DNA of 63,566 bases, the filler included, from Folioceros fuciformis (taxonomy: Eukaryota), in the NCBI GenBank assembly GCA_049999805.1. It is 6 parts of 5 records of this genome, joined end to end, with 100 filler letters (N's around TTAATTAATTAA, not from the genome) between each part and the next. Parts side by side here need not be neighbours in the genome. Positions count along the whole stretch, not along the records: positions 49,448 to 60,480 come from JBNGIO010006180.1; 5 more parts are not named here. The stretch is one strand, 5' to 3'. The notes beneath the pieces were generated by a model that ran no database searches, was not told where the DNA came from, and was given only the letters and a program-made list of their open reading frames with translations. The position numbers were made by a program, and so were the translations under genes. Position 1 is the first letter of the stretch, and each line of letters starts with the position of its first letter. Positions 20,164-62,105 of this stretch are shown here, in pieces.

Positions 20164-20363
20164 CAGGACCAAGGAGGTGATCTCCCTGCCTTGGAATCCA
20201 ACTCCTTCTTGATTGGCCGCGGGAATTGGAGGAGATATGTTGGATCGCTAGCAAGGCAGGCGTAGGAGCAGAGAGAAATTGCGGTGGAGCAAGTGAGCTT
20301 GGAAGCGAACGGGAGTTGATACGGGGGAGATCTGAGTAGGGGAAGGCCCCGGGGGGTGTGGAA

Positions 20364-31135: not shown

Positions 31136-32519
31136 GCTTCCTTCTGGGCTGTCACTTCGGCAAATGTAACTCCTCCTTTTATTTTAATACTTCTTCCTTC
31201 CTGAGTTTTGTATACAATCATGCAACTAACTAAGGCTGTACTGGCTGTTTATTCCTTCGGCCCCAATCCCAAGTGGAATTGAACATTACGTAATAAATCA
31301 TTTTCTTGCTGATTCTTTCTCTCAATACAACCTGAAAAATCAGTATATTCTTTTGATCGTCTGCCGGGAGCGACTGCTCATCAACTCTATTCACATTGAA
31401 TGTGGACGCGCATCCCGTCAAATCTTTCAATTATTTTTTTTTTAAGCTTTCTTTTCTGTATGAAATAGTATGAAATGAATAAAGATGGATAGTTTCAATG
31501 CACACTTATTAATATATGTGTACTATAAAGTAAAAAATAAGAATCTCTTGACCCTATTCAATAATATATCGACACATGTCCAAAATAATCATAAACAAGA
31601 TTATATTATGTAAAGAACCTCTCGTATTTATTTTAGAAAAAAAAAAGACGGAAAAAACCATCTATCCCAACAGAGGGGGATAAACCACTAGAAGCTAACC
31701 CCCTCGAACCTAATGACTGTCAATAGCACCTAAAACAACATGGTCTAAGAGGAGAAAGGGTTTACTACCACTAGAGTTGTTAATGCCGCCTCTCTTGCCA
31801 ATGTTGTCGTCCTATGTACGGCATTATAATGTCAATGCTCGCTACTAATTGTTTCAGCTTTGATTCAATGAAAATAAGTGGATGGCATCTTTAGTTTGGA
31901 AGAGAGATAGAAAAACTCATCTATCTCCCAATGTGGGGCAAAAACCTATAGGGACTGGCCTAATTAGGAGGAAGGGGGAAATCATACTCCATAATTACCA
32001 ATGAAGCTGGCAGAAATATATCTAATTAAATTTGATTTACAAAAATTCTAAATAGTGGCCTCACGTTCTACAAGCATCTTGTGTTTCGTAGGTTCAAAAT
32101 TCATTTACTACGAACTAATTAAGATTTCTTTAAAAAGGTTGCTAATATCTTTTAGTATTCTTATATTCAAACGTGGGCAAGACCACGACTAGCCGTAAAA
32201 ATCAGGTGGCCAGGTAAAGGCCCACTCACACTATTCTTACACGAGTCTGCCTGTAAAGGTTGCCACATGACATGTGACCATCATACATACACCGCATATA
32301 GTTTAGGCTTGACCAGCTACCGGTTGTGTCTGCCACTAGGTTGTAAGGACTACGATTTAGGTACTGAAACCCTCATTTCAAATCGTGATTTGCTTACACT
32401 GGAGTCCACGAAATTGGGGCCAAATTCGCACTCCTTAGATGGATAAGGGTGATCCTAGTTGACCTCGCTTACCACCAAATGATGCGCCCTATACTACTTA
32501 CTACCAAATAATCGCATGA

Positions 32520-41028: not shown

Positions 41029-42289
41029 CTAAACGTTTCCCATGCTGTACAGTGTGGCTAAAATGGAGCAAAACGTTTGAACCCGGTAACCCCGAACTAG
41101 GAAGGAATGCACGAGGCCGTTCATGTCTGTCCACCAGCTCTGGCCTGGCTGCTTCCACGCCCTAATTTTGATTCTCCTCGTCTGAATCTCTTGAGCCTGC
41201 TCCCACATATGGGCACTGGAATATATGTTCGACATGGACACGTAAGCTGCGGCATCCTTGTTGTCAAGCTTCAGGGCTTCATGGAAAGCCTGGCGTCCCA
41301 CCTCCACATTGCCCCACTTTCGACAAGCGCCCAACAGAGTGTGCCAAACTGCCGCATCGGGCAGGACAGACATCGTCCTTCCCAGAGAGAGTGCTTCATC
41401 CAGTTGGCCTGCACGACTTAGGAGATCCACCATGCACGTGTAGTGCTCCACCGTGGGTCTGATGCCGTAGTCTCTCCTCATGACATGAAAAAGCTCTTGC
41501 CCTAGGTTCACCAGACCTGCATGGCTGCATACTGTTAGCAGACTGAGGAATGTTGAGCCCGTTGGGTTCATGCCATCCTCTCTCATTTGGTCATAAAGAT
41601 GAAAGACCACTTGACTGTCTCCTTGTCGAGTATAGCCTGCAATCAGTGCATTCCAGGCCCCTACGTCTCTCTCGTGTAAATTGTCAAAAACCTGCTGTGC
41701 CTCCGCCATGCTGCCACATTTCCCGTACATGCTTACTAAACTGTGGGCCACAATCATATCAGCTTCTAGCCCTTGTTCTTCGATCTGTGCATGAAGTCTC
41801 CTTCCTATATGCAAAGCTGCCACATTTGCGCATACCTGCAGGAGGGATACGAAGGTGACAGCATCGGGTGCAGCCACGCCCTCTTCTACCATAGCATGAT
41901 AGAGATCAAGGGCTTCCTCGTCCATGCCCTGCTGGTAAAAGGCAGCAATCATGGCATTCCACGTCCCAACATTCTTTTGGCCAAGCCCATTAAACAAACC
42001 CCGAGCATCTTCTAGGCTGCCGCACTTTGCATACATGTTCACCAAGCTGTTGGCTACACACACATCAGTCAGAAGCCCCTGTTCCCTAATCTGTGCATGA
42101 AACTGTTTCCCCTTCTCCAGCGCCTGAGTGCCCACACTTGCACACGCCTGAAGGAGAGATAGAAAAGTCACAGCGGTGGGCGTAGACATGCCCTCTTGCT
42201 GCATAGCACTGAGAAGACGCAGGGCTTCCAGGCCCATGCCCTTTTGCGAATATGCCGCTATCATGCTATTCCACGTCACCACATCCTTC
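41029..42289 (-). CDS. PLS-class PPR protein with E1/E2 and WW-type PG box, DYW domain missing (5' end cut by contig join)
   Basis: P-L-S triplets (ANSLVNMYAKCGSLEDA, VGTWNAMIA), P2-L2-S2, E1 (PDAAVWHTLLGACRKWGNV), E2 (AAAYVSMSNIY), then KQPGQSWWTDMNGLVHSFLV and a stop shortly after. Confidence 0.92.
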
Positions 42290-43001
42290 NNNNNNNNNNN
42301 NNNNNNNNNNNNNNNNNNNNNNNNNNNNNNNNNTTAATTAATTAANNNNNNNNNNNNNNNNNNNNNNNNNNNNNNNNNNNNNNNNNNNNAACTGGTTTCA
42401 ACCCTTTCTCCAACTGTTCATTCCTTGACATCTCTTTAACTTCACAATTAATTCTAAATTCTCTACTGTCTACAATTCACTCCTTCCTTCTTCTCTCGAT
42501 TCATTCAATCACTGTAAACATACACACAACATTCACCATAACAACGGTGCATCCAATACTTCAATCACAAGAACAATCAATCAGTTCTTCACAATTCAAT
42601 CTTTATTAACATCCACTTCAACTGGATTTCCAACTCTTACTTCACAACTTACAATCAATTCAATTCTTCAAAGTAATTTCCAAACTGTAACAAAACAAAA
42701 CAAAGAAACAAAACAGGAAGCACCAAGCTTTCCTCGGCACTCGACATCAACAGTCCGGCCCACTTCTCTTTGAAAATCTTCTCTATATACTTCCAACATC
42801 TGTACAGATTCCAACCGATACCCCACTCTAACTGCCTAACAGACTTTCTGAAATAACCTTTCAAATCTAACCTGCATAAGTACCTATTCACTGGTAATTA
42901 CTTAATCCGACCATACTCTAAACCAAAAACTCAAAATAAACCAATTTACTATTACTACATAGCCCCACTTCTAACTGTGCAGCGTCCTCGCAAACACCAA
43001 T

Positions 43002-44762
43002 TCAGAACCCAGATTTCGATGAAGAAGAAGGATCCTTCGGCACATGCACTACAATTGCCTTCAATTTCGGCTCCGAAGGTCTGACTTCAGAGACTGCCAC
43101 CCCGATCTCCTCTATGGGTTCTTCCCGTATTAGCTCCTCATCTTCCTGCTCTTCCTCACTGTTCATTTCTTCGTCATTTGGCTCATCGCCAGCTAACTTG
43201 GCCGTCAAATCTTCATTATACGCCCCCAAATCTCTGACTTGCGACTCCAATAAGGCAATTTGCGCCTCCTTCTCAGCGACTAATTCTCGCTGTGCATCCA
43301 GTTGCTGCTGCAACAGTTCTGAGTGATCCCCCGTAGTAACAATAGGTTCTTGAGAGCTAATCTCATCCAATTGACGCTTCAGGTCTTGAACTTCCTTCTT
43401 CTGCGTGGCTATCTCGGACTGAGAGATCTTCTGCTGCTGGACCAGTTCGCTAACCAATTTCTTGGACTCCGTCTCCACCTGCAACACTTTGTTCCTCTCT
43501 CTCTCCAACGCATCCCGAAGTTCCCTTCGTTCCTGTACACCAATTGCTTCCATGCTCTTAAGCAATTGCCTCTCCTTCCCCCAATTTATTTCTTTTTCGT
43601 GGAGCTGCCTCTCCATCAAATTATACCTGGCCACCGCTTCAGCCAAATTACCCTCCAACTCAGCCAATTTCTTATTCTGCTTGACTACGGTCTTTCGTTC
43701 TGAATCCAATTCTTTCTTCAAATTGGTATCCCCTTCCCATTGCATCACCGTTTGCTGTAATTGGCCGAGCTGGGCCAATATTGCCTCTTTCACACCACCC
43801 TGTTTTATACTGGTCCCTGCCAAACCAATTCGCTGATACAAGTCTACCGAAATTGGTACTTCTGTAGGTCTCTGGGTAACCTGCCAAGCCATAGTTTTTA
43901 ACCCTGCATTGGACCTTCGGTGGGATTCACTCAATCTATTACCCCCTTCCACCAGTTCCACTACATTCTCCTCTACAGGTACCACCTCCTGTTCCGAATT
44001 GGGTTGCCTGTCCTCGGTAAGAAGTTTCTCCTTCGATAATGACTTCTCCTTTTCCTGTAATGGCTGCTGCAACTGCCAACGTATCACTTCACATATATAA
44101 TTGGAACATAAAAGTGCTGGTACTCGACCCACCTTCCGCTTTGCCTCCAATTCCGCATGAATCCGCGTCGCGACATACGCTGCCCAGTTGAACACCATAC
44201 CGTCCAATGATCCAATTGCTGCAAATAATAACTTCTTCGCCATGTAGGTTGTATGACGATTCAGAGCTAGTCGCTTCTGAACGAATCGCATCCATTCGCC
44301 CAATTCCGGTGTAATCGCATCACTGGTCTTCCACCCTTGACCCTTCTCGAACGCGTCCACTCCCGATTTGAAGTGGTCCTCCTGAACAAAGTCCGTCGCC
44401 ATATCTGATCCTACCGATAACTCACTAATCGGTAGATATAACACCTTATTCAGTACTACTTCGTCAATTCCCACAATTCGTCTTCTAACGACACTACTAC
44501 CATCCTGTGGGTCGTAGTTACGCACAAACTCCTCTACTAACGGTATATCTATCGGTGGCAATTTCTCCGACCACCGTAAAAACGCATACAATCCGGCACT
44601 GCGAAAATCTTTCTGTTTCGACGGCATCCAACATAATTCTAATTTGACTGGCTCCATATTGGTCACTATAACAAACTCCAATTCTGGTAACTCGTCTTTC
44701 CTGCGCACATTACGCTGTCTATCGTCTCTCACGGCGCTTCTCTTTCCTCGTACCATCGCCAT
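43002..44762 (-). CDS. Extra 3' ORF (env-like) of a Ty3/gypsy element, with long coiled coil and acidic tail
   Basis: Same strand as the integrase and ~235 nt downstream of its stop. PLVEEFVRNYD..VRRRIVGIDEVVLNKVLYLP resembles the Athila-type env-like N-terminal motif; heptad-rich region in the C-terminal half. Confidence 0.7.
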   Translation of the reverse strand: MAMVRGKRSAVRDDRQRNVRRKDELPELEFVIVTNMEPVKLELCWMPSKQKDFRSAGLYAFLRWSEKLPPIDIPLVEEFVRNYDPQDGSSVVRRRIVGIDEVVLNKVLYLPISELSVGSDMATDFVQEDHFKSGVDAFEKGQGWKTSDAITPELGEWMRFVQKRLALNRHTTYMAKKLLFAAIGSLDGMVFNWAAYVATRIHAELEAKRKVGRVPALLCSNYICEVIRWQLQQPLQEKEKSLSKEKLLTEDRQPNSEQEVVPVEENVVELVEGGNRLSESHRRSNAGLKTMAWQVTQRPTEVPISVDLYQRIGLAGTSIKQGGVKEAILAQLGQLQQTVMQWEGDTNLKKELDSERKTVVKQNKKLAELEGNLAEAVARYNLMERQLHEKEINWGKERQLLKSMEAIGVQERRELRDALERERNKVLQVETESKKLVSELVQQQKISQSEIATQKKEVQDLKRQLDEISSQEPIVTTGDHSELLQQQLDAQRELVAEKEAQIALLESQVRDLGAYNEDLTAKLAGDEPNDEEMNSEEEQEDEELIREEPIEEIGVAVSEVRPSEPKLKAIVVHVPKDPSSSSKSGF

Positions 44763-44997
44763 TGTTACAATTCCCTGATCGTGTGCACAATATGCTCTAA
44801 TGCACCTCAACTACAGACGCACAAGACGACTACGGCCCCACTTCTAAGCGAAAAACACAACGTAAGCAAGAAAAACAATGGTGCCTTCTCCCGGCTGCGC
44901 TGCTGCTTAACCCTTAACCTAAAATTTCGGCGTCATTACTCAAGCGCCGCCATTTCTAACACCCTTCCCCCATTTAAAACGGAAACCCGTCCCGGGA

Positions 44998-45687
44998 TTA
45001 CTGATGATATAGGCGTAACCTATTTCCATTAATCCGAGTTAAAAATTGATTACCCATAAAATCTTCTAATTGAACAGATCCATTCGGAAATCCTTCAATA
45101 ACGCGATAAGGACCATGCCAACGGAATTGAAATTTACCCGGAAAATTATAAAATCGACTGTCATATAACAATACCAAATCATGTGGCATAAAAATTTTAG
45201 GTTTCAGTTTACTGTCATAATAACTCTTCCGTCGTTTCTGGATAGTTTCCATCGATAAAAATGCATTCGCTCGAGTTTCATCCAATTTTTCCAATTGGGA
45301 ATAACGATGCTTCAATGAATCCTGGTCACCCAAACGGGCATCAATGGCAACCCGTAAACTGGCCACTTCCAATTCTATTGGAAGGATCGCTTCCTGACCG
45401 TAAACCAATTGAAAAGGCGTAGAATTGGTTGTAACTTTGTACGCAGTACGGTATGCCCATAGAGCGGCAAATAATTTAGTATCCCAATCCGTACCCGCTC
45501 CTGAAATTGTTTTCGTTAAAATCTTACATAAAATACCATTAGTTTTCTCCGTCTGACCATTGGCTCGAGGATGATATGGAGTTGTTTTCCGATGCTTAAT
45601 ATCATATTTACTGGTTAATGCTTCAATTGTACTATTGATAAAATGGGTGCCACGATCACTGACCAATTCCTTAGGACAACCAAAACG
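44998..45687 (-). mobile_element. Ty3/gypsy (Athila/Tat-like) integrase C-terminal part
   Basis: LVSDRGTHF, TTPYHPRANGQTEKTN, ALWAYRTAYK..TPFQLVYGQEAILPIELE, GKF..RWHGPY (GPY/F motif); no chromodomain. Confidence 0.93.
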
Positions 45688-45787
45688 NNNNNNNNNNNNN
45701 NNNNNNNNNNNNNNNNNNNNNNNNNNNNNNNTTAATTAATTAANNNNNNNNNNNNNNNNNNNNNNNNNNNNNNNNNNNNNNNNNNNN

Positions 45788-48700
45788 GAAGCCCTCAGGC
45801 TGCTGCATGAAGATCTCTTCTTCAAGTTTGCCGTGCAAGAATGCCGTTTTAACATCCATTTGATGTATGAACAAGGAGAAAAATGCCGACATGGAAAAGA
45901 GAACTCGCAGTGATTGAGACTTCACGACAGGTGAGAAGGTATCATGATAATCCAGTCCCGGCACTTGTGAAAACCCACGTGCTACTAGTCTAGCCTTATA
46001 ACGCGAGATTCTGCCGTCTGCCTTATACTTCAATTTGAATACCCACTTTGAGGTAACAATTTTCCTCCCTTGAGGCGGAGGGCAGATCTCCCATGTCTTG
46101 TTATCAATAAGGCTGTCATATTCTGACTTGATTGCTTGTTTCCACTGTCGTGCTTCAGGACCAGACACTGCTTCACGATATGGCTGAGGCTCATAGCCTA
46201 GATTTACAGTCATGTTAGCCTGCTCAACCACATCAATAACCACCTCCCCTGGTGCTCAGCCAACATGATTGGGTACCTTCCTGAAATCTTCACTTCTGTA
46301 TGGAGGAGGTCCATTGCGCAGGAGGTCTCCTGATCCTCGTGAAAGGACGTGGAAGAACAGGCTGTGGAACAGGTATGACATACTCTACTGGATCATCGAC
46401 AAACCAGTCAGGGTTTATAGCGTGATTTGGAGTAGCAGGTAAGTGTTCATCAACACCTTGTGCTGCATGATTAGGGGCAGGTGCATCATCATATGAGGAA
46501 TCAGACAGATCAGGCTGATCTGGAGGATCACCTGGATTTGGTGGAGGCAGTACAGGCTGGACAACAGCTGGAGGCTGGACGACAGGAGGAAGAACAACTG
46601 GCTGAACAGGGTTAAGAAAAGACGGATCATTGGCTGGAAAATGGACAAAGTCTGATTCACTAACCTCTTGTTCAGTGTCTACAGGAGGCTCTGACAGCTC
46701 TACACTGTCTGGATCTACAAAGTCATCTAAAGAATGCAACGGAGGTCTAAGTACAATGCTCTCATCAAAAGCAACTGTTCGTGCATGAACAACTCGACGA
46801 GTGGTGGGTTCAAATAACTTGTAGCCATGTATTCCAGATGTGTATCCTATAAAAATGTGTCTTTTGGACTTAAAGGCAAAATTTTGACGTAACTTATCAG
46901 GAATATGCGCATATGCAGTGCTACCAAAGACCTTAAGATGAGAAAGATCAAGCTTACTTCCTGTCCATGCTTCAAATGGAGTGGAACCACGAAAGGAAGA
47001 CACAGCAGACCTGTTCTGAAGGTATGTAGCCACCTGCACTGCCTCTGCCCAAAACCTGATTGAAAGCCTTCCTTGATATAGAAGTGCTCTAGCAGCATCC
47101 TGGATGGTCATGTGTCTTCGTTCAGCACGGCCATTCATATCAGAGTGATATGGAATGAGTTGGCATGTGATCCCCCTCTCTTGACAATACTCCTGAAAGG
47201 TTGTTGATAGATATTCCTTGCCGTTGTCAGATCTTATGCACTTAAGCTAATACCCTGTTTGCCTTTCTGCATACGCGAGGTACCGCTTGAAACTGTCAAA
47301 CACCTCACTTTTCCGGCGAAGAAGCTCAGTCACAGTGAAGTGAGATTTATCATCCTCAAACACGACAAAGTACTTGGCTCCTCCCCATGAGGAGACAAAC
47401 ATGGGTCCACATATGTCTGTGTGAACCAGATCTAAGATCTCTGTGGGCTTTCTTGGTTTTCCACTTCCAAAATGCGACTTGTACTGCTTGCCATGTACAC
47501 ATGCAACACAGAGATCAAGATCAGGAAGTTCACTCTCATTGAAACCAGTTACCATCTTTTCACGCAACAGTCTCCTCATAGCCTGGATGTTTGGGTGCCC
47601 TAGACGACAGTGCCACTTAAAAGCATTGCTAGCCTTAACAGTTCTAATGCTTGTCTCTGTGGAGTTCACTGCAGCACCGGGAACATCTGATGCGAAATCC
47701 AGAAGATAGAGATCAAAGAGTGGTGTCCCACGAGCGATTGTGACAGCTGGAGCAGCTAATTTGGAGATATGGCACTCTGTGCATTCAAATGTAATCCTAT
47801 ACAGGTTTGTCTTCCCTAACGCCATAGTGCTGACCAGGTTCTTTGCAAGAGCTGGTACATGAAGTGTATTCTCCAGCAATAGATGACTTCCATCCTTCAA
47901 CGTAATTTGAATGGTTCCTGAACCCTTGATTGGAATGGTAGAGTCATCTCCTAACACTACTGCTGTCTCGTGACATGTGGGAGATGGCACGTATGTTACA
48001 AATGACTTCCTCTTTGAGCACATATGATTGCTGGCTCCACTGTCTAGGAACCACTTTTGGCAACCCTTTTTGGAAGATGTAAGACAGGCTACAAGCAGCC
48101 TTGGAGTAGTAGCCCTAGCAATGTGGGCTTTAGGTGCATGTCTGCCTTTAGCAGCCTCGTCTTTTGCTCGTTTTCTACAGTCTTTAATCCAGTGTCCTAG
48201 CTTCCCACAATAATTACAATTTCCAGGTTTAGAGGATGAGCTTGACTGACCAGCAGGGGATGACGTAGACATAGAAGCCTGTCCTCTACCCCTACCGTAG
48301 CCACCTCTACCTCGACCCCTACCCCTTCCTCTACCTCTACCAGAGAATAAAGCTGTATCACTTTGTCTATGTGAGGAATGGGACGCAGGTGGGCCACCCT
48401 TCATTTGTTTTCTATGGGCCTCAAACTGCAGCAATGCCCCTACAACTTTCTGGACAGTTAGGTTAGACAAAGCAGGAGTTGTGGCTGTAGCAGGTATGAC
48501 TACTACTGATGTTTGCAGACTCGAACTGAAATGTTCATAGCTAGGTGGAAGTGAGAGCAGCAATTGGACTACTCCCCTAGATTTTGTTATGATCACTCCG
48601 TAGGATGCAAGCTTGGCCCTACAGGCTCGAAACTTGGCAACATGACTCTCAACAGAGTCGTTTTCCTTCGTACGAAGTGTCTGATACTGCAGGGTTGCTG

Positions 48701-49347
48701 CTGCCTCGGCTACCATATCCTTAGAGTCATAAGTTTCTGATAGCAATGACCAGACCTCGTTTGAAGACTGCGTCAATCGAATGTGAGGAATCATCTCCTG
48801 CGAGACAGAGGCAACTAATATGGTACATGCCTTTCTGTCCTTATACTTCCACTCTAACTCATCTTTCATTGTCCAGGGCACTTGATTCACACCTCCTGGT
48901 GTCATTACTCCGGATGGCTGACCATGTACCCTTCTTGGTACAGTTCCATCTACAACTTCCATCAAAAGTTTCTCTTCTAGGATGCAGCGCACCCTGAAGC
49001 TCCAGGCATCGAAATTACCTGGATTCAGACAGTCCTTTTCCTGCAACCGATCTGAACCCGTGTCTGGGGGAGCAGCCCCAGACATGATGCCTGCGAGCAC
49101 TAAATCTCGCTTAGTGGGGTAATGACAGGTGAGCAATCTACTCCCTAAGGCTGTTTATTTCCTGCTCTTGCTTAGCCATTGTAGATAGATCTGAAATGCA
49201 AAGATGCTCAAGGCGTTCTTGTCTTGACTGCAGATGATCAGCACGAGTGGTATACTCCAGCACTTTACTTCTAATGTTCAGGATGGAGTTCAGGATTGCA
49301 TCATGCTCTGTAAACCTTTCGACGTATGGTACCAATTTTTCTGGCGC
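45788..49347 (-). mobile_element. Ty1/copia element A (ORF0 tail, gag, protease, integrase, RT start)
   Basis: gag ATG at 49085 (NFDAWSFRV), zinc knuckle CNYCGKLGHWIKDC, WFLDSGASNHM, WHCRLGH..CVAC, HTDICGP, IRSDNG, RT YKARLVARGF/QMDVKTAFL. Order INT-RT is copia-type. Premature TAG at 47247. Confidence 0.95.
49111..49347 (-). CDS. ORF0 of copia A (3' part only, one internal TAG at 49138)
   Basis: FTEHDAILNSILNIRSKVLEYTTRADHLQSRQERLE..KQEQEINSLRE*IAHL aligns with ORF0 of copia D; ends 25 nt before the gag ATG. Confidence 0.7.
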
Positions 49348-52300
49348 NNNNNNNNNNNNNNNNNNNNNNNNNNNNNNNNNNNNNNNNNNNNTTAATTAAT
49401 TAANNNNNNNNNNNNNNNNNNNNNNNNNNNNNNNNNNNNNNNNNNNNAAGTAGCCCAGGGTATGTAATCTAAACCCGGTATCTGGGTAAAACCTTTGGCT
49501 ACTAGTCTTGCCTTATATCTCTCAATGGAACCATCACCCTTTCGTTTAATTTTAAAGACCCATTTACTCCCTACGATTTTTCTCCCTTTGGGTGGTTTAA
49601 CTAATTCCCATGTAGAATTCTTAACTAGGGAATCATACTCAGAGTCCACTGCAGCTTTCCATAAGTCCTTCTCGGGAGAAGTGAAAGCTTGTTTAAGGGT
49701 CAGTGGCTCTTCAGGATCAACTGTAGCTTTGTAAACAGATTGATAAAAATGGGAGAAAGGTGAGGAGGGATCATCAAAAGTGGTGAGGTATCCTAAAGGT
49801 GGTTCCTTCCATCCTGCAGGGCCAGAAATAACAGGTCTGGTCCTTAGGTTGTACCTTGGTGCAGGTTGCTCTACGTCGTCGACGATTGGATTCTCTGTGT
49901 GTACAATATCTTCATGTGCTGGTTCTTGTAATGAAGGAACCAGTTCCTCAATATCCGGATAGTCAGGCTCGGGAAGTTCATCATCCGGAACCACATAAAT
50001 ATCATCCAGGTGTTGAGGAATTTCCAGATCTGGATCTGGAATAGTAGGTTCGTCGCGGAGAAGATGGCTCCTCCTCCTCCTGCACAATAGGTTCAACTGG
50101 AGGAGAGGAAGGAAAAGATTGAATGCTGATAAACTCATCATCATCAAAAGATGTGGGTACAGTATTGTCGTCAGGAACATAGACAGAAGAGTAGGAGTCC
50201 ACTGGGGATAAGAGTGGAGACTCATGAAAAGTAACGCTGCGGGCATAAATGAGTTTCCTTGTAGCTGGATCAAATAACTTGTATCCTTTAATACCTTCTG
50301 TATAACCAATAAAGGTGTACTTGGCAGCCTTATCATCGAACTTCTTACGCTGTGCTTTAGGAATATAAACATATGCCGTACAGCCAAAAACCCGAAGGTG
50401 GTCGATGGAAGGCTTTCTGCCAATGAATGCTTCATAAGGTGTCATACCCCGAACTGCTGAGGTGGGTAGTCGATTGAGAAGATATGTTGCCGTTATCATT
50501 GCTTCTGCCCAATATGGTTTAACTAACCGGGCTTGGGAAAGCAAGCAACCTGTTATCTCTTGAAGACGTAGATTCTTATTTTCTGCTACGCCGTTTTGCT
50601 GAGGGGTATAAACCACCGTGAATTGCTGAGCAATACCTTGAGCTCGACAAAAATCTGTAAAAGCATTGGAGATAAACTTGCCTCCATTATCGGAACGGAG
50701 GGTTTTGAGTTTCTTCTCTGTAAGTCGTTCTGCCCACATCATGTAATCCTTGAAGTATTGAAAAGCTTCACTTTTGTGCTTGAGGATGTATGTTGTGGTA
50801 AAACGGGAATAATCATCAATAAAAGTAATAAAATATCTGCAGCCGCTGAAAGATGGTGCAGAAATTGGGCCACAAATGTCGGTGTGAACCAACTGTAAGG
50901 GTACCTTGGCCCGCTGAGGAGAATTGTTTTTGAAAGGAGCTTGATGTCTTTTAGTAAGGACACAAGCTTCACACCATGATAATGGTTCTATCTTTGGAAG
51001 GGAAGGGTGTCTATAAAGGTTTCCCTTAGACATTTGGACAAGCTTTTGGCTATTAGGATGTCCTAATCTACAATGCCAAAGTAAAGTAGTGTTGGACGTG
51101 ATAGAGTTCTGAGAAGCTAAATTAACTCTATCATGTGATGATTCTACTTGGACTGCAAGTTTATATAACCCGTCCTCTATTGTGCCTGTGCAGATATTGA
51201 GAGATTCACTAGGAGAGTAAGTGAGAAGACAACTATCTGCATCTAAAATGACTTGTATGTTATGTTCTATGCATAAACAAGTAGCTGACACTAAATTCTT
51301 ACACATGGCTGGTACATGAAGAACATTGGAAAGAACAAGGATTTGACCAGAAGAACATCTGAGTTTTATCGAACCTATACCAGAAATAGGAAGGTTATGA
51401 TCATCACCTAATAAGACACTCTGATGTCCTGTAACATAATTATAAGATTGATACAGACGTCTATTATTACAGATGTGTGCAGTGGCTCCACTATCCAAGT
51501 ACCAGTTTGGATTTGATGACTTTGATGAAGTCAAACATACAGTTAGAGCCGAAGGTGTTGTAGAAGATGTCTTCTTCACAGCTATATGAGCTCCAGGCGC
51601 AGCCTCTTTTCTAGGCTCACCATTTTTCTTCTTGTAACAGTCCTTCTCCAGGTGGTTTGGTATTCTGCACCAATTACAAATGATGCCTTTCTTCTTGGTA
51701 CCTTTAGCAGGTGTTGAAGAAGAAGTCTCTCGTCTTCGAGAGTTGTCATTGGAAGTCTGGGGTCGATATGAAGTGGAACCTCGGCCTCTGCCTCGTCCTC
51801 TTCCATTACCCCTTCCAGTGAACATCACCTGTTGCTTATTGGTTCTGGAGTGTCGCCGACTTGATTCCTCTTGCATCAATGCTCCTATGAGCTCGGCGAT
51901 GCTGAGCTTAATTTCTGCTTGTGGATTCTCATCTGCCTCACGTCTTGCATTACGGAGAACAGCATTTTGAGTTGTAACAAAAGCTCTATAAGACGGCGGT
52001 AAAGATGATAGAAGGATAACATATGCTTCCAACTCATGGACAGGAATGCCACTTGCAGCCTCAAGTTGAGATCTTGCTAGTCAGAAATTACTAATATGGC
52101 GTTCAATGGAATCGGACTCCTTCATTTGAAGGTTGCGGAAATTACAGGAGGCGGCAACAATACTCATAACATCCATGGAGGAGTAGAGCTGAGCAAGGTG
52201 AGTCCACATGTCGTGGGAGGTCTTTGCATGACCAACTTGTATCACCATTTGCTCCGAAAGTCCACTGATGATAAGGTCTTGTGCCTTCTCGTCCCTGACG

Positions 52301-52576
52301 TCCCAGGACGTTCGAAGGTGTGCTTCAAATCTTTCAGTGGGTCTGGGAAGTCTTCCTTCGACTATGTCCCAGAGATCTCGTTGTCGCAAGGCTCCTTTCA
52401 TCCGTATAGCCCAAACATAATAATTCTTTCCATTGAACCTATCCTTCTCTTTGAAGCTGTCACCATAATGATTAATCAAGGTATGATTAGAACTCCCAGA
52501 AGGATCCATCATGGGTGTATTTGGTGACGCTGAAAATTCTTCTTCAATATTAGATACTCCAGCCATAGCAGGTGAT

Positions 52577-53152
52577 CTAGAGGACTAAGCCTCGGCGGTA
52601 CAGCTTTCCATCTTCTCTATTGCAAGCTCGAAACTCCTCCCTTGCACGGTAACCTGCATCAGGAGATGATGACCTATTAGAAAGTTCCTGCACATCTTTG
52701 AATTTAGAGAGATTGGACACCCTTACCCCAAGTTCTGTTAGTTTTCTCTTGAATTCAAGATGTTGAATTGTTAGAGAAGATAATTCTCTATCTAGGTCAT
52801 GAATTTGGTGAGTTTCTATATTTTGGCCTTGTAGACAAAAGAATTTAGAAGCGTTAACGCCAGCTCTCAAATTAGGGATATGTTGAATAGCTAATTCTAA
52901 GGCCTTAACATGGATTGGGCTAAATACTTCTAGCAAATCACATCTAGCAAGCTTAATCAACTTCCCTTGGTCTGGTTTAGAAATTAGAATAGATGCAATG
53001 AAGTTAGCTATGCGAGAAGATATCTCATCTATCTCTCTTGCTATAATTTGTGAACTTGTATTGCTCTTAATCCTAACTTGATCTTGTTGTCTTGCAGGGC
53101 AATTTCTTTTCCTAATTCTAGGCCTCCTCCTATTAAAAGAAATCAAATCCAT
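52577..53152 (-). CDS. ORF0 of copia B (191 aa)
   Basis: Intact ATG-to-TAG ORF between PBS and gag; N-terminal RRRPRIRKR; heptad-like IHDLDRELSSLTIQHLEFKRKLTELGVRVSNL; stop 10 nt before the gag ATG. Confidence 0.7.
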   Translation of the reverse strand: MDLISFNRRRPRIRKRNCPARQQDQVRIKSNTSSQIIAREIDEISSRIANFIASILISKPDQGKLIKLARCDLLEVFSPIHVKALELAIQHIPNLRAGVNASKFFCLQGQNIETHQIHDLDRELSSLTIQHLEFKRKLTELGVRVSNLSKFKDVQELSNRSSSPDAGYRAREEFRACNREDGKLYRRGLVL

Positions 53153-53343
53153 AAAGAGGAGACGAAGAATTAGTGCATATGAACATTATGGGAAAAGAGA
53201 TATTTGCATGAGAAGAAAACATAAGAGAGCAGCAATTATAAAAGAGACACAATCCATCTAGCGAGGTGCTAGATTGGAAAAGATGTCTCCTAGATGCGCT
53301 CCTTAAATGCTTAAAGCTGCACTTGCATAATGAAGAGCAAGAT

Positions 53344-53355
53344 GCTCTGATACCA
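53344..53355 (-). promoter_or_regulatory. Primer binding site (tRNA-iMet) of copia B
   Basis: Minus-strand TGGTATCAGAGC directly after the LTR end CA. Confidence 0.92.
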
Positions 53356-53625
53356 TGATGAAAATCTAGCCTTGCTCTTAGATGCAAATCTTAGAATGTA
53401 ATTGAATGTAATGTAAGAAGTAAAGTACAAGCCTTTATATAGGCTAGGTAGTTGGGCGGTTACAACTATAAGTGGTTGTAACCATAAGTAGTTGTAACCG
53501 TAAGTGGTTGTAACCGTAAGTGGTTATAACCACTATAGCTAATAACTACCTAAATAACCCTAGGTAGATAATTAAAGTTAAGAGGCCCTAATGAATAGTG
53601 CCCTAAATCTAGACTTATTTCATCA
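53356..53625 (-). repeat. 5' LTR of copia B (270 bp) with internal 16-bp repeats
   Basis: Terminal inverted repeat TGATGAAA...TTTCATCA; minus-strand TATATAAA near 53435; TAAGTGGTTGTAACC(G/A) x4-5 at ~53455-53532. Confidence 0.85.
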
Positions 53626-55823
53626 AAAGTGGCCCAAGCTATTCCTCACATAGCGGTGAGTTGCCCTCGATTCCTCAGAAGACGACATCTTGGTCACATG
53701 GTTCTTCATCTACTCTTTCAAAATGATGCTAAGAGCGAACACGGTGAGAATGAGTATTGCACACTTGGTTTCAAGAGGTTTCTCTTGGGCACGCTCCAAC
53801 AAGCATCATACTATGGAGTTTTGGGGCGTAAAGCAGGAGGAGACCAAGCACTCGCAATTCATGGCTAGAGCCTCACATGGTTCTCACTTGTAAGGACTGA
53901 TAATGGCAAAGCAAGACTATGAATTCATTGCTCAAATATCATCAACGAATGGGAGTGTTAAGGGATAGTGTTGATAATATCTTTTAATTAAAGGTGCATA
54001 AATAGTGATATATAGGGGTACATAGAATAAATAATTATTAGTATCCCTTAGTTAAAGGTGTGACTTATGGTGAACCATTATGGTGTTTAATTTTAGAAAA
54101 ATAGTATCTTTTCAGTACAAGCACTTAAGTCTTTTCTTCATACACAATGATACATCCATGTAATTGAACAATATGTATTTGATATGAAACAAGCCTATTT
54201 TATAACAATTGTGCTAAGACCTACCCATAGATGGGTAGCCCACATAGAAGCTAACTTCAAAACTACCTACTGCCTTGATAATATCATGGTTTGAGATAAA
54301 AGGCGCACCCTAATACCATACTTATATACTTAAGAAAATCAGTTATTTGAATCATTAAGTTTAATAATTATGCATCATTGTATGGACATTATTGAATATG
54401 CATATCATCTAGCTACATGATATTTATATGTCTTAGGCTCATAAAAGAAAGATGGAGGAGATGGCAATACGAGAAAAAGAAAGACTTGCTCTTGTTGAAC
54501 AAGCAAACAAAGAACGTAAATTGCATAATTTACAGTTAAGGCAAGAAGCAGAAGCACGATCTAGAGCGGCAATGGAAAATTGGCAACGTTTGTTACAAAA
54601 GCGAAAGGATGACTATGACAGACGACAGCAGGTTGGGTACTTTCTTGAGTAAAACTCAAAGCACTTACTTAATGACATGCTATAGCATATAATGAAGCTT
54701 GTAACTTAATCATTATATATATATGTGCAATGAATTCAAAGGCTTCCATAAATAGAATGTAGCTCTCAAATTGGTCCTTCTCCTAAAGAAAAAAAATATA
54801 GAGCAAGATTATAAAAGGCCTTGGTTTTTTTATTTTTCTAAATTACATCATCTCATAAACAAAAGGTGTGTGTTGAAGACTACTCACTCTAAATTGAAAG
54901 GCAAGGGACATTACTAATTCATCAATAGATGTGGTCACACCCCTTAACTTAGCGTTTTGGCTGTATTACAATCCATTCATTGGTCTCCTACAATATAAAC
55001 ATCTGATACTTCCCGTGCATTTGTACCTCTTTATCCCTCATTTGTATCCCATTTGTTCTCTATTGTGGTTCATTACTCTATGTTTACATTACTTCCAGTT
55101 TGGGGAAGAACTTTGGCTAACAAAACTATGACCAAAAGTTCTTTAGTAAGAAGTTCACAAGTTATACTAAGCACAACTTCACAAGTTATACTAAGACTTT
55201 TCTTTGTAAAATCAGATGTAGTTATAAAGAGATTTGTGCAATGGGAGATATGGAAGAAAGATTCCCATGTAGCATCAAATAAACGTTACCTAGTTCAAAG
55301 AATTGGAAATTAGAATTGGTTGCCACAAACTCAGTAAGCAAAGAGTGCTAGACCTCAAGTTCTCTATAGTTATCAACGAGATCATATGATTTTCACGCCA
55401 TGTACTATAGAATACTTAAAACTAATTTGAACATAAAAATATGAAGAGATGACAACATGAGCGTCAAAGATAGTGTGGTGGCAAAACATGGAGCACAAGT
55501 CTGTCAAAGGGCTTGGGCTGTCTTTAGTCCACACTTATCCCACTATCGTCGAGACATAAGGTTTTGTTACCATGAAGGAGTGACAAAGTCTCTCGCTCTC
55601 TAGGATGGATGGAGGGTCTCCCTTTCTCGCTACCTCGACTCCTAAGCATATCCTAGTCTGTCTTGGCCTTTATGTCACAGCCATTCCAAAATAGTTGGGC
55701 TAACTTCCTAGCCAACCCACAAATAGCTCACAAATTGACCCCAAGTTAGATGCCTCTCATGGTCAATTCTTACAACAACAATCTAGGATAGTCCACTAGA
55801 TCTTGTTAGATATCAAATATTAC

Positions 55824-58800
55824 TGTTGGACCTTAACTATTGCATATGTAGGAATATGTCTAAGTTGTTTAGACCATTAATTAGTCGTATAGTGAAACGC
55901 CATGTCTCATGTACTTAAACAGCGCCACCAGTAAATTATTCTTCTTTGATGCTAACAAGCTAGCATGCTACTTTGCTTCCACTTTTGCCCACGTTTACTC
56001 ACATGGTATCAAAGACATGTTTTGCACCTTGTAGAAACTTATGAAAGATGCCAAGGCAAGGTGGCTGCTCCAAAAGGTCGCGTTGAGGTGGACCATTAAA
56101 ACATGACCTTCACGGAAGACTATCTGCCTATACTTATAGCACCTCTATATTTACAAAACAATACTCGATCCCTGTAGTCAAGCCTACCTTGCTCATTGGT
56201 CACATGGCCTCATTTTAGGTTGTGCACTCAAATCAAATCATGAGGTTGGTTGTCTTCATCCAAAATGTTGCCACAGGAGAAGACTGAACTCTGACTTGCT
56301 CCATATTCAATGAATCGAGCCACCCTCCTCCTTTGATTTAACATTTTGACCATGCACTGTGGAGGCAATCCCTAAACTTGCCTCAAAGATACCCACCTTT
56401 TGCGTTGTGGCTTGGAAGACAAGGCGATAAAGTGAGAACTAGGCGTTATATGGAATTCAAGAGTATTGCTAACAAACTAGAATTGGCACTTATCCATTTA
56501 AAGGGAGCCCTATTGCTTATTCTTTCAAATTAGGTGCTCATCTACAATAAGTTTGGCATCTTGGATTTTGAGTCAAGATCTGAACTCGAGAGGTCTGGAT
56601 CAACTTTGAATTCCCAGATCCCTTGAAGCGTATGCTGCGGAGTGGTGTAGAGGCTTAGGCGCGGGAGTGGAATCCTACTCTTAATCCCAAGCGGCGCACT
56701 TCCGCAAGCACCCCTACCACAATCTTACCCATGTTTCTACTTTGGTCCAACTATTGATGCCCCTTCACCAGATGTGGGCCTATTGATTAGTAACGACCTG
56801 ATTTCACAAAATTGACATGCCCATTTAGATGAGAAGTCATATGTTTCAAGGTTTCTGTTCAAGCGTCACAACTATTCATGAGTGCCTGAAAGGAGTTGAG
56901 GAGTTCATCATAAGAAGGGCATAAGTCCTTGTTACTCCCTCCTCTACCTGAACCCCTCAACTACCCTTCCTACACATAATGATCAGTAGTTACGTTCAAA
57001 TAGATCACATACACACATACGATACATCAATACTTAGCTGTGCTGGCTAAGCCATAGTCTCATATAGTCTACTTGAGTTTTCATGTTCACTACAGCACAA
57101 ATGACTGCCCTAATTAGTAACTTTCAGATCTAAGTTTGTTGCCTGGTGATCCCCACAATCAACCTCACCGATGGCCACCGTTAACTCTCCTTCATTTACC
57201 TCTAAATTTAGAGAAAAGGACAGGTTTAAAGGAGATGGCTTTTCTACTTAGCGTGTGAGGATGAAAGCTACCTTGTTAGCTCGCGGCATCTGGGGCACAA
57301 TTGATGGATCATACCGGAAATTGGATTCTACAACTTCTCCTGCACGATCTGCTGGCAAAATTACCAAGTAGGAACAATACAATGCAATTGTTGTGGCACT
57401 CCTTATTAGTGGACTTGATGTGGATCTGGTCCCTGATGTTGAATTTTTGAACTCAGCAAAAGAGATTTGGGATCGTCTGGAGAAGACTTATAAAGTACAA
57501 AGACAAGAGGGTAAACCCTGTAAGACAAGAGTTTTTGACCCTGAAGATGAAGGAGGGTGATAAAGTGGCAGTGCATACAAGTAGGTTCCAACACCTTTGA
57601 GCCCAACTCACCTCGTTGGCTGGAGACAAGACGTCGGAGATAGATGTTGTGGTGCAGTTTCTCACAACTCTTCCTCCTTATCAAACCTTTGTCACTAGCT
57701 AGAATGGACGCCTTTGCGCTACCTCCACGACCTCCTTATCTGGTGTAACAGCAACCGTTACCTTGGAAGAAGTAATTGGTGCGCTGTTTCAAGAGGAGCA
57801 GAGTCGTACCTTTGCTACTGGATTCCCTAAGAACAAATATCAAAAGGTGTTGGTGGCAAACTTCTTTAAGGGACGACCATTTAAGGGCAAAGGAAAGTGC
57901 ACAGGGTGCACCTCTCCTAGATAGAAGGGGGAGCTGCTAGTTTCGACTAAGAGTCCATGCAACTACAATTGGTGCGGCATGCGTGGACATTGAGCAAAAG
58001 AATGCCGGAAGGAAAAGGCTAGTGAGCCACAAAAACAACTAAAGCTAGTTGCAAGTGTTGCAGTATGCCTGGACACTGGTCAAGAGAATGCCGAAAGACA
58101 AAGGCCGGTGAGCTACAAAAAGAACTTAAGCCAACTACAAGTGTTGTAGTTAAAGACACATCAGGAGGCCCGAAAGCACCAACGAAGATTCTCACTATTT
58201 GATTGGTGAGTTCTCTGAATGATGATAGCTGTTGGTATCTCGATTTTTGAGCTACTACATATATATGTAAGGACCAAAAGCTGTTCACCACCCTACACCT
58301 GATTCATGCAAATGATAAGGTATTCCTTAGTGATGAGCAAAGAATTACAAGCTTACATATAGAAAGAAAAGGTACATATGTTTTCAAATTGAATGATGGC
58401 ATAGACCTTATGCTTGAAGACATCCTTTTCATCCAAAGTATGGCAAAAAATCTCAAGTCTATGAGCTAGCTCATGCGTCTACACATGTTTTATCTACTGG
58501 TAGACCATGAACATTGTTGATTCTATAGGCCATCTCCCCCTAACATGTGCGTGCTCAAGGGAATACCTGTCCAATATTTGTACAAGTTAAACATCACTTG
58601 TCTTTTGGCATAAGGTGCCATGCAGCATTTCACTAATTCTGCTGGTGCACTCAAACCTAGTTCTGCACAAGAAGTGATTTTGTGGCATGCACGGTTAGGA
58701 CATGTTCATAGGTCCAAGCGTATCGATATGTATGTTACAGAATGCCACAAGGAACCTCTTCCTAAGTGTTTTAAACACTTACCTATTTGTGAGTCATGCA

Positions 58801-59227
58801 TACTAGCCAAACAAAAGGAGTCTCCTTTCCAAAATGCATGTGTGCATAGAGGTACAGATACACTTGAACCCCTACACACCTCAACAAAATGACGTTCCAT
58901 AACACAATAACCAGACATGACAAGGAACATTTTGCTATGGGCATGCTTACCTTAGAGATAATGGGGTTGAAGCAGTTGTGACAACAATTTATATCCTTAG
59001 TAGAGTACTCACCAGCTCAATCCCTAATATGACTCCATTCGTGGCGCTTGGGCATAAAAAGCCTAGCCTGCTACAATGCATAGTTTTTGGATCTAGGGCT
59101 TTTGCTTATGTCCATGCGGAGAAGTGCAAGAAGCTTGATCCATGAGCACAAAGCCTTATTCACGTTGGCTATAGTGAGCACACCAAGTCTTATAAATTGT
59201 ATAATGTACAAACAAGCGACGTGGTAC
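55824..59227 (+). mobile_element. Degenerate Ty1/copia element C
   Basis: PBS-like TGGTATCAAAG at 56004 after ..CACA; gag from ~57171 (FREKDRFKGDGFST*RVRMKA); two zinc knuckles near 57970 and 58050; LWHARLGH..CESC; integrase tail to 59227. Many stops. LTR start is approximate. Confidence 0.8.
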
Positions 59228-60480
59228 TGTTAAAGGTATTATTTAGACCTAAGTATACATTGCTACTACTTAGGGTTAGTGACGGTTACATACTGTTTTA
59301 GGTTCTTAGACTATATACTTTATTTGCTTTCATGTTTTTCCTTAATGCAAGTCTACATGCTTTGTGGTCAAATGCGCCTAAGGTCGTGTGCCAATTGATC
59401 ACAAATATCAACATGGTATCAGAGCCCAGGCTCTGGTCCATCCTGGAAAAATTTGCTGTAGAAAGAAAATTTGAAAAAGAGAAATCGAAATGTCTTTCTT
59501 TGTTTTTAGGCGCTCAATGTGAGCTCTAATGTGTAGGAGGCACAATGCCTCGTAAATCAGGCTACAGGGATGTCTAGACTGACTCTGCCAAATTTGGGAG
59601 GTCAAGGGTGTCGGATCCTCGCAATCTGCTGAATTTCCAAGTGGAATTTGAGCACTTGTATTTCAAGAAAACAGTTGCACGAACCGAACAGCGAGAGCGC
59701 ATCCGGTTCTTGAAATCTTTTATCGACTCCTATAATCCAGATCCTCCTGGCCTTGATTCCCTAGCGTCTGACAAAAGATCAGATACATTAGATAAATTTA
59801 GTTGTTCAATAGGTGGTGGTATTCATGAATTTGTAAAACTTTCTCCTCATCACTTACCTCAAGATTTCGAAAATATTGACGTAATCCTCAATTCCCTCTT
59901 TATCATCAAGTCTTCTATATTCGAATTTTCTAGAAGATTAGACAGTCTCTCATCCCGTATGGATGGTTTAGAGAATCAAAAGGGGTCATATTCTTCTTCA
60001 TTGATAGAAATAGAATTAGAGGTAAAGAAACAATTCAAGGATATCACATGCATCAAGGAGCAGATTGCTACCTTGAGTGTACACTCTTCCTAGTTACCTA
60101 ACACAGTGCAGGCATGCATCATGGAAGCGGGAGCGGCTGATTCATCTACACATCGGCTACAAGAGACAGACCGACTTACCTCTGCTAATTTTGATGCCTG
60201 GAGTTTTAGGGTTAGGACAATTCTGGAGGAGAATCTCTTGATGGATGTGATGGATGGAAATGTTCCTCAACGACTTGTAGGACAGCCCTCGGGCAGGGTG
60301 TCCCCTGGTGGCAGCTCTATTAAAGAGAAATCTGATTGGAATCATAAAGATAGAAAAGCGAAGACGATTTTAGTCTCTTTTGTGTCACATGAAATGATTC
60401 CACACATCAAACTAACAAAGCATGCACATGAAGTGACAAGTGTCGAGTACGCGCGGAAGGCCGATAGGCGTAGGCAAGAA
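59228..60480 (+). mobile_element. Ty1/copia element D nested in C: LTR 59228-59413, PBS 59414-59425, ORF0, gag start
   Basis: TGTT...AACA termini followed by TGGTATCAGAGC; gag ATG at 60121 (RLQETDRLTSANFDAWSFRV), same family as element A. Confidence 0.9.
59545..60093 (+). CDS. ORF0 of copia D (182 codons, one internal TAG at 59575)
   Basis: MPRKSGYRDV*TDSAKFGRSRVSDPRNLL...DVILNSLFIIKSSIFEFSRRLDSLSSRMDGLE...IKEQIATLSVHSS*; lies between PBS and gag, in frame with gag. Confidence 0.72.
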
Positions 60481-60580
60481 NNNNNNNNNNNNNNNNNNNN
60501 NNNNNNNNNNNNNNNNNNNNNNNNTTAATTAATTAANNNNNNNNNNNNNNNNNNNNNNNNNNNNNNNNNNNNNNNNNNNN

Positions 60581-61056: not shown

Positions 61057-61315
61057 TAAAGATAAAGTACATTTATTATTAAGTAGCCAAGCATTAATTA
61101 AATAGAGATAATCCCGATATGAAACGCTAGATATAGAAAGGCAAAGTATTAGGGTCGTGACTCTAAGTATCAACCGTCACACTTCACGGGACACCACCAA
61201 CGGTTGCCCTGCACACCTTTTAAGGCCACACGGCCTAAGCTATCTACTACTCACTTCTTGAATCTCTTTCTCGCCTCTCCCGCGATCCTCCTTCGATCTT
61301 TATGGTATCAGAGCC

Positions 61316-61517: not shown

Positions 61518-62105
61518 ATGCCGAGACCAAGAGGCCAGAGGAATCGCCTGCGCTGGACAGATTCTGTTGCTGGTAGACGCGGTGAGCCAGCAAGATTACC
61601 TCCTAATCGCTGCGACAACCTTGATTGCTTTAGTCACCTGGCTAGAAAACCCTCGCGTCAGGCACGCACGATCCCTCTCTAGGCAGCATGGTTATTTTGT
61701 CCTCAGAGTCTCACTTGCAGCTCCTGCATTAGCAATCTTGAGTCAAATCCCGGTACTTCCGATTTGTTGATAGAAGACATACACCACTCCGTCAAGACAC
61801 TTGCATTTGACACAAAGAAACGACTAGCTGATCTTTCCATTAAGGTAGCAAGTACAAATAGGCACGTCACCCACCTTGCCCATCAAGTGAACACCTTGTT
61901 AAAGATCAGCAACTTGTCCCTGCGCGAAACAGCATCTCCTAAAGAAACATCTTCACGAGTTCCAGAGAAACCTGCACCTGTTCAGATCTCTACAAACACA
62001 CAACAGTCAGACTGGGAGAAAATGTTTCATGTGATGCAAGAATTTTTTCCACAACATATGGAGCAAATGCACGCCTTCGAAGCAGAGGCTGATCTCCCTC
62101 TCTAA
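61518..62105 (+). CDS. ORF0 (ORF-b) of copia F (195 codons, one internal TAG at 61680)
   Basis: MPRPRGQRNRLRW..RCDNLDCFSH..PL*AAWLFCPQSLTCSSC..LADLSIKVASTNRHVTHLAHQVNTLLKI..DLPL*; ends 12 nt before the gag ATG, in frame. Confidence 0.62.

Follow-up and report, generated by a model that had tools for sequence, protein, structure and literature searches.

The window analysed here is a stretch of 63,566 nucleotides from Folioceros fuciformis (NCBI GenBank assembly GCA_049999805.1), made of six parts of five records joined end to end; positions 49448-60480 come from record JBNGIO010006180.1. Its final 20 kb hold a nest of Ty1/copia elements, which are called A to E below. The subject of this report is ORF0, an open reading frame (ORF) that stands directly in front of gag in elements A and D and whose two copies resemble each other as proteins. 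The features of the two elements that bear on this comparison are as follows.

Element D, 59230..59413, + strand: probable 5' long terminal repeat (LTR), about 184 bp with TGTT...AACA ends; left boundary approximate; preceded by the truncated integrase of the older element C and directly abutting the primer binding site
Element D, 59414..59425, + strand: primer binding site (PBS), TGGTATCAGAGC, an exact match; the identical 12-mer is found in element B (53344-53355, - strand) and element E (61303-61314, + strand)
Element D, 59545..60093, + strand: ORF0, 183 codons including stops; ATG at 59545, in-frame TAG at 59575-59577 (codon 11), final TAG at 60091-60093
Element D, 59836..60081, + strand: the part of ORF0 covered by the local alignment blocks with A; two predicted helices with heptad-spaced hydrophobic residues
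Element D, 60094..60120, + strand: spacer from the ORF0 stop to the gag ATG, 27 nt
Element D, 60121..60480, + strand: start of gag (Pfam Retrotran_gag_2), in the same frame as ORF0 and 61% identical to the gag of A; cut by a linker at 60481
Element A, 49111..49347, - strand: 3' part of ORF0, 79 codons; in-frame TAG at 49140-49138, final TAA at 49113-49111; 5' part lost behind the linker at 49348-49447
Element A, 49086..49110, - strand: spacer from the ORF0 stop to the gag ATG, 25 nt; the frames of ORF0 and gag differ
Element A, 47250..49085, - strand: gag-protease-pre-integrase ORF, 612 codons from the ATG at 49085, with Retrotran_gag_2, zf-CCHC, Pol_BBD and gag_pre-integrs; more in-frame stops follow downstream

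The host elements of ORF0 are Ty1/copia LTR retrotransposons, as is evident from domain content and order in A (Pfam matches in the order Retrotran_gag_2, zf-CCHC, Pol_BBD, gag_pre-integrs, SH3_retrovirus, RVT_2) and from the PBS in D, where the Pfam matches are the gag start and Pol_BBD. We take TGGTATCAGAGC to be a PBS of the initiator tRNA-Met type. tRNA-Met is the usual primer of copia elements (PMC6317226). The PBS of element A is lost in the scaffold gap. In-frame stops and later frameshifts are present in the gag-pol regions of elements A and B; these are dead copies.

The ORF0 of D reads MPRKSGYRDV*TDSAKF...IATLSVHSS*, and its open part from stop to stop (59578-60090) spans 171 codons, more than any ORF that arose in 500 dinucleotide shuffles of D's leader (695 nt). 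The corresponding reading in A is APEKLVPYVERFTEHDAILNS...SLRE*IAHLSLPH*, in which the in-frame TAG (49140-49138) is aligned to a sense codon in D. Because the frame in A is cut at 49348 by the linker, comparison of the two copies is limited to the last 85 or so codons of D. In D, ORF0 lies in sense orientation between the PBS and gag, and in A it lies outside the gag frame, both of which agree with a 5' additional ORF. A stop codon precedes gag in both elements, and in neither does ORF0 run into gag as one continuous frame in the manner of an N-terminal domain of Gag.

The junction between the two frames is itself similar in A and D. The ORF0 stop falls four codons (D) or three codons (A) past a common I-A-x-L-S motif, and 12 of the 15 nt upstream of the gag ATG are identical (60103-60120 in D and 49103-49086 on the - strand in A). 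Conservation of these 15 nt is well above the 50% seen in ORF0, and they may represent an initiation context. The offset of ORF0 relative to gag is zero in D and non-zero in A, since the two spacers differ by 2 nt. A stop that keeps its position while the frame offset varies is what two cistrons would show, and it agrees poorly with decay of a single ORF0-gag frame.

Comparison of ORF0 between elements A and D

The A and D copies were aligned with the Smith-Waterman method under BLOSUM62, which gave a local alignment with a score of 95 and 29 identical residues among 73 aligned. When A was shuffled by composition (n=2000) the mean score was 26.2 (standard deviation 4.4, maximum 48), and when both sequences were shuffled the maximum was 53. 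The initial annotation, working from two pairs of aligned peptides that do occur exactly and in place in the A and D frames, had named beforehand a score no better than shuffled coiled-coil controls as one of the results that would overturn its claim of protein-level conservation. Shuffles that keep the hydrophobic/polar pattern raised the mean to 31-32 (standard deviation 7-8) and the maximum to 67 (A shuffled) or 77 (both shuffled), and none of 5000 reached 95 in either run. In a sliding scan of all six frames across the window, each ORF0 copy had the other as its best non-self match, at 95, with the runner-up at 51 and the 99th percentile at 39. The pair was not reported by tblastn at default settings, which we attribute to seeding and to the stop codon and do not count against the similarity. 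The similarity between the A and D copies of ORF0 is thereby confirmed to be far beyond chance.

The similarity was claimed to reside in the protein and not in nucleotide or untranslated region (UTR) sequence, and this has held up. All 18 pairings of frames on both strands were aligned separately; only ORF0 with ORF0 was significant (z 16.5), the other 17 having z of 3.3 or less. Across the aligned codons 109 of 219 bases are identical (50%), against 29 of 73 residues. Placing the same 110 differences at random (n=5000) left 15.1±2.7 identical residues with a maximum of 26, compared with the 29 observed, and a BLOSUM sum of 22±18 with a maximum of 89, compared with an observed 125. The same nucleotide alignment, read one base or two bases out of step, kept only 15/70 and 9/70 identities, with BLOSUM sums of 9 and 2, which is unlike the behaviour expected of blocks conserved as DNA. 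Because the alignment was chosen in frame 0, the random-placement and shifted-reading tests carry some bias, from which the test of 18 pairings is free. Different codons are used at 19 of the 29 identical residues (66%), as they are at 44 of 65 in gag, and the switches in ORF0 include Ser TCT/AGT and AGT/TCA, Arg AGA/CGT and CGT/AGA, and Leu CTT/TTG and TTA/CTT.

That the gags of A and D are clear relatives was likewise borne out, with 65 of 106 N-terminal residues identical (61%). Identity in ORF0 is 40%, from which it follows that ORF0 evolves faster than gag. The proposed comparison of substitution rates was carried out by the Nei-Gojobori method and was not decisive: the proportion of synonymous differences (pS) is 0.73 in ORF0 and 0.91 in gag, and the proportion of nonsynonymous differences (pN) is 0.45 and 0.29, respectively, so that dN/dS is uninformative because the synonymous sites are saturated. 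Conservation of ORF0 at the protein level is comparable in kind to that of the element's own proteins. Taken together, the alignments show that amino-acid constraint acted on ORF0 in precisely this frame as its synonymous sites went to saturation.

What the conserved part may look like was approached through structure prediction and heptad spacing. A single-sequence AlphaFold2 model of D ORF0 places helices at residues 94-132 and 139-169 of the 171-residue frame, with low confidence. Over a window of 28 residues at the same aligned place in both copies, the hydrophobic heptad a/d positions number 8/8 in D (LIIFLLML) and 7/8 in A (IIVYALQL), counts reached by 0 of 500 shuffles for D and 6 of 500 for A. 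The coiled-coil character that the initial annotation had proposed to check is hence present as a heptad pattern in both copies. On this basis we infer the ORF0 product to be a small protein (about 180 aa), mostly alpha-helical and coiled-coil-like, whose conserved C-terminal 80 or so residues would form a helix-loop-helix with approximately four heptads of coiled-coil-like spacing. It would work through contacts with itself or with a second protein, and its role in the element might be in particle or RNP assembly, nuclear targeting or counter-silencing. A complex prediction for two copies of residues 86-171 scored 0.02, short of the 0.32 that marks a verdict.

Contigs from the sample bear on how ORF0 is represented beyond this one copy. 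Summed word depth in the contigs of three DNA runs from one sample is 55-117 over the leader and ORF0 of D, versus about 11-12 in unique flank, word depth not being a copy number. At least four variant codons in D ORF0 (five places) are not of the bisulfite type, comprising a synonymous Leu change, Ala>Thr, Ile>Thr and Tyr>Asp, the last of which gives the residue found in A; these are among the best-supported differences listed, and no rates follow from them. One run, X3, differs from positions 49448-60480 by 659 C>T and 666 G>A changes against at most 45 of any other change, and many C positions in D ORF0 and gag read T in it. It behaves like a bisulfite-converted library of the same sample, and C>T seen only in X3 was set aside as conversion of that type. 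None of the sequencing runs listed as containing the stretch is an RNA run, and of the four runs compared as contigs one may be RNA.

Other elements and the rest of the window

The elements of the copia nest, and the leader ORFs of B and E that occupy a position analogous to ORF0, are arranged as follows.

Element A, 49347 down to 45788, - strand: ORF0 tail, gag, protease, pre-integrase, SH3-like integrase end and start of reverse transcriptase (RT); 5' side lost at the 49348 gap
Element B, - strand: PBS 53355-53344, leader ORF, gag from 52566, protease, integrase and RT start; 3' side cut by the 49348 gap
Leader ORF of element B (positional analogue), 52577..53152, - strand: ATG 53152, TAG 52579-52577, 191 codons from the ATG, uninterrupted
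Element C, about 57170-59230, + strand: heavily decayed copia element
Element D, + strand: LTR about 59230-59413, PBS 59414-59425, ORF0 59545-60093, gag ATG 60121, gap at 60481, protease to about 61100
Element E, + strand: PBS 61303-61314, open frame, gag from 62118; inserted into element D
Leader frame of element E (positional analogue), 61683..62105, + strand: 140 codons, with the first ATG of the gag frame (62118) following 12 nt after its end; same frame as gag

In B the stop of the leader ORF is followed after 10 nt by the gag ATG at 52566, which lies in another frame, and the ORF's 202 codons from stop to stop were reached by none of 500 shuffles of the leader. The frame in E is within chance length, 22 of 500 shuffles reaching the longest ORF of its leader. 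No Pfam family matches the B ORF, which begins with a strongly basic stretch (RRRPRIRKR) resembling a nuclear localisation signal. Homology of the A/D ORF0 to these two leader ORFs was considered and rejected as unsupported: pairwise z values were 3.8 (D with B), 1.2, -0.8 and 0.0; hhalign gave B an E value of 0.088 over 19 residues and element E one of 0.29; and hmmsearch with an A+D profile against 1552 six-frame segments returned B at E 16 (about rank 19) and element E at E 55. Gag identities between the A/D, B and E lineages are 29-38%, and because ORF0 diverges faster than gag, homology of the B and E leader ORFs would be invisible even if real. A common leader-ORF layout across A/D, B and E is suggestive, no more. 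In-frame codon usage also resembles that of the copia genes: a sense-codon model trained on those genes ranked the ORF0 of B 6, that of D 8 and the frame of E 11 among 110 ORFs of at least 100 codons, but a presumably non-coding ORF scores about as high, which makes this weak support for coding.

One contig in each of two runs from the same sample joins position 52593 of element B directly to 53084, skipping 490 nt, with a word depth for the skipping contigs of 107 of about 243-299 and 146 of about 312-335. A second joint in B, from 52654 to 53082, carries 18 other letters. There is therefore a sub-family of B that is without most of the leader ORF or has it replaced.

Five identical 100-base linkers (N44-TTAATTAATTAA-N44) mark scaffold gaps at 19688-19787, 42290-42389, 45688-45787, 49348-49447 and 60481-60580, and the DNA on either side of a linker is not necessarily contiguous. 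The 49348 linker brings an RT fragment of element B up against the tail of ORF0 in element A; contigs from the same sample continue otherwise there (loose end at 49450). The nest is layered, with D lying inside the integrase region of C (about 59230) and E inside the protease region of D (about 61100). The LTRs of D and E are very short, at roughly 180-190 bp.

The window as a whole is land-plant nuclear DNA, in which Pfam identifies PPR genes with an E motif, LysM-domain ORFs, an S-adenosylmethionine decarboxylase (SAMDC), an ABC transporter and a vacuolar sorting receptor. Uninterrupted host frames include an ABC transporter of 1339 codons (27167-31183, - strand) and a SAMDC of 404 codons (20340-21551, + strand). 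PPR-repeat frames are located at 7000-13000 and 41032-42288, one of them with the E motif, and the diverged direct repeats found there (families D1, D4 and D5) are PPR units. An open frame of 602 codons at 43005-44810 (- strand) matches Transposase_32 only weakly, at E 4e-6 and short of the Pfam cut-off, and adjoins a fragment of an integrase-core end at 45001-45687; it may be the extra ORF of another retroelement. The SAMDC is at most 56% identical to database proteins, with lycophyte, moss, fern and conifer sequences about equally distant, and the gag-protease ORF of element A has a best identity of 25-28% over most of its length among 68 matches, a few short partial matches being higher. 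Judging from these identities, the host lineage is poorly sampled in protein collections.

Interpretation of ORF0

On balance we think it probable, with room for doubt, that ORF0 is a separate, once-functional accessory gene of the 5' additional ORF kind, that it codes for protein, and that A and D, members of one Ty1/copia lineage, both received it from their common ancestor. It is a real gene now, or was one in the active ancestors of the dead copies A and D. The earlier statement that ORF0 was inherited with the family stands for the A/D lineage; it does not extend to the leader ORFs of B and E, for which homology is not demonstrable. ORF0, in sense orientation between the PBS and gag, would be translated as a cistron of its own, and translation of gag would follow by termination and reinitiation on the full-length RNA. 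Reinitiation is proposed because the ORF0 stop lies so close to the gag ATG. An alternative to reinitiation is removal of ORF0 by splicing. A GT...AG pair at 60022..60111 that could splice ORF0 to gag was considered and dropped, as its use would remove the block that is conserved as protein. In a wider version of the proposal, which we consider unlikely in this full form, A/D-type copia elements are bicistronic, with a fast-evolving coiled-coil ORF0 first and gag-pol coupled to it by reinitiation over a spacer of 10-27 nt. This layout would have arisen or been kept in A/D, B and perhaps E, and ORF0 would be a required trans-acting factor, in a role comparable to that of LINE-1 ORF1p or the small caulimovirus accessory proteins.

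Several points weigh against ORF0 as a protein-coding gene. Only two copies are compared, each with one in-frame nonsense codon, from which it follows that neither makes the full protein now, and with the 5' half of A lost the first 95 or so codons of D ORF0 are without comparative support. The ratio of pN to pS is only 0.62, and differences are weakly skewed by codon position (42/30/45 of 76 codons), a low contrast that results from saturation of the pair. The fold model is poor (pLDDT 46.7). The ten ATGs in the leader of D make simple scanning to either cistron difficult, plain scanning being unlikely for that reason, and we infer reinitiation purely from spacing. Leader ORFs of this kind can also be absent or replaced in sub-families, as is seen from the 490-nt skip in the unrelated element B.

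The database searches belong on the same side. A search for near-length proteins with D ORF0 gave no match, and phmmer found no true homologue among 1.84 billion representative proteins. The sole match in that collection (P0004, E 6e-5) was rejected as spurious, being a GIGGG...SPHH tandem-repeat protein. Pfam holds no family for D ORF0, and relaxing the limit to E values up to 5 brought up nothing but coiled-coil noise (Filament and Fib_alpha at 0.13). The ESM Atlas contained no neighbour of D ORF0 scoring at least 0.9, recognition being low, and a metagenome scan with the gag alignment yielded 530 pattern matches of which none was confirmed. Because the host lineage is absent from the collections, their silence says little about the spread of ORF0.

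The arrangement in D by itself would suit a different reading, in which ORF0 is the N-terminal extension of a long Gag and the active elements carry one continuous ORF0-gag-pol frame, the stops being decay or sites of programmed readthrough. ORF0 and gag of D share a frame with a single TAG between them, the same is true of the unrelated element E, and both copies of ORF0 are decayed in any event; eORFs (extra ORFs) fused to the polyprotein in some copies do occur, and were removed by Neumann et al. (PMC6317226). However, the two frames differ in A, so that a fused frame would have had to suffer two separate events within the same 40 or so nt, a frameshift in A and a nonsense change in D, where a 2-nt length difference in a non-coding spacer is simpler. 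The stop also falls three (A) or four (D) codons past IAxLS, and the gag Met is conserved together with the 15 nt before it (12/15), neither of which speaks for a fused protein. We regard the Gag extension as unlikely to be correct. Position alone would also allow ORF0 to be an upstream ORF (uORF) of translational control that sets ribosome flow to gag and releases a peptide without function, given that it ends 25-27 nt before the gag ATG in a leader with many ATGs. Pure ribosome-barrier uORFs require no conserved peptide, those with peptide-dependent stalling conserve a short C-terminal stretch and not 80 residues, and some 180 codons is long for a regulatory uORF. ORF0 exceeds these expectations with about 180 codons and about 80 conserved residues, 29 of 73 being retained, along with a heptad pattern, while synonymous sites turned over, and a purely regulatory role seems to us decidedly unlikely.

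Two further explanations deny the frame any function as protein in the element. ORF0 could be a fragment of a host gene captured by the A/D ancestor and carried as a passenger without a role, since plant LTR retrotransposons are documented to capture genes (PMC7264820) and ORF0 has no relatives among retroelement proteins. No host-like protein was matched either, and amino-acid identity in a passenger would not persist through synonymous saturation, which makes this account very improbable; capture as the origin of ORF0 could still be compatible with a later function. Alternatively the conservation might lie in the RNA or DNA, as a packaging, dimerisation or promoter element within which the open frame is incidental. 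Retroelement leaders do carry cis-acting signals, and the nucleotides just before the gag ATG are the better conserved ones (12/15). The block itself, however, has only 50% nucleotide identity, one of the 18 frame pairings is significant, shifted readings lose the similarity and 19 identical residues use different codons, and conservation at this level is disfavoured as the least probable of the accounts.

Comparison with known systems

Extra ORFs are widespread in plant LTR retrotransposons, though to our knowledge no function has been assigned to any. As a rule they are known from a single family, in which conservation may mean no more than that the copies are young. ORF0 is seen in two elements whose synonymous sites are saturated (A and D), and its survival through such divergence is rare direct evidence of selection as a protein, unusually clean but drawn from two broken copies. 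If the tight spacing of stop and start does reflect coupled translation, the A/D elements would offer a tractable polycistronic case in a plant retroelement.

For the proposed mechanism an analogy, and only that, can be drawn with LINE-1. LINE-1 produces a bicistronic RNA of ORF1, spacer and ORF2, its ORF1p is a coiled-coil protein, and translation of its second ORF has been described as unconventional. The likeness consists of a coiled-coil protein in the first cistron, a short spacer and then the main ORF. LINE-1 is, in contrast, a non-LTR element, and its ORF1p has RRM and C-terminal domains, none of which is matched here in Pfam. Plant regulatory uORFs likewise lie upstream and end near the main start, but ORF0 far exceeds them in length, and its conserved peptide extends over 80 residues.

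ORF0 joins a class that is already established, namely the extra ORFs found at the 5' side of plant LTR retrotransposons. The review by Vicient and Casacuberta separates additional ORFs (aORFs) that are conserved across a family from one-off captures, and reports that upstream and downstream, sense and antisense aORFs all occur (PMC7264820). In the REXdb survey of Neumann et al. (2019), eORFs of at least 250 codons were recorded in 582 Ty1/copia and 3372 Ty3/gypsy elements, those of copia falling into 45 mutually dissimilar groups, most without a known domain; the 3' ORF of SIRE is a copia eORF discussed there (PMC6317226). At 183 codons including stops ORF0 is below the 250-codon limit, which is a survey threshold and not a biological criterion, and the REXdb survey would thus have missed it. 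Our literature search returned general surveys and gypsy cases and no described copia 5' ORF of this kind, with subscription journals and the supplements of PMC6317226 outside its coverage. As ORF0 stands in a copia element, below the survey cut-off and in an under-sampled group of plants, small 5' ORFs like it may be systematically overlooked.

The closest parallels are in the Tekay clade of Ty3/gypsy. In the rice elements Retrosat2, RIRE3 and RIRE8 similarity is 30-34% for ORF0 and 69-70% for ORF1 (PMC3485330), and in sunflower Tekay 13-2 a 5'aORF of about 400 aa with predicted helices and disorder is present in 500 of 523 elements (PMC11728184). Such Tekay ORFs are retained within families yet diverge far faster than gag-pol. 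Like them, the ORF0 described here is a sense ORF placed after the 5' LTR and ahead of gag, has no recognisable domain and changes faster than gag (here 40% versus 61%). Unlike them it is found in Ty1/copia, encodes about 180 aa and comes from a host far from the sampled species, whereas the hosts of the Tekay ORFs are Ty3/gypsy chromoviruses of seed plants and the ORFs are larger. It does not belong to the Tekay ORF0 family as judged by its copia host and the absence of a true phmmer match in the representative proteins, a comparison that did not include direct pairwise alignment. What sets ORF0 of Folioceros fuciformis apart is the combination of a copia lineage, short length, a conserved core that is coiled-coil-like and an end within 25-27 nt of gag.

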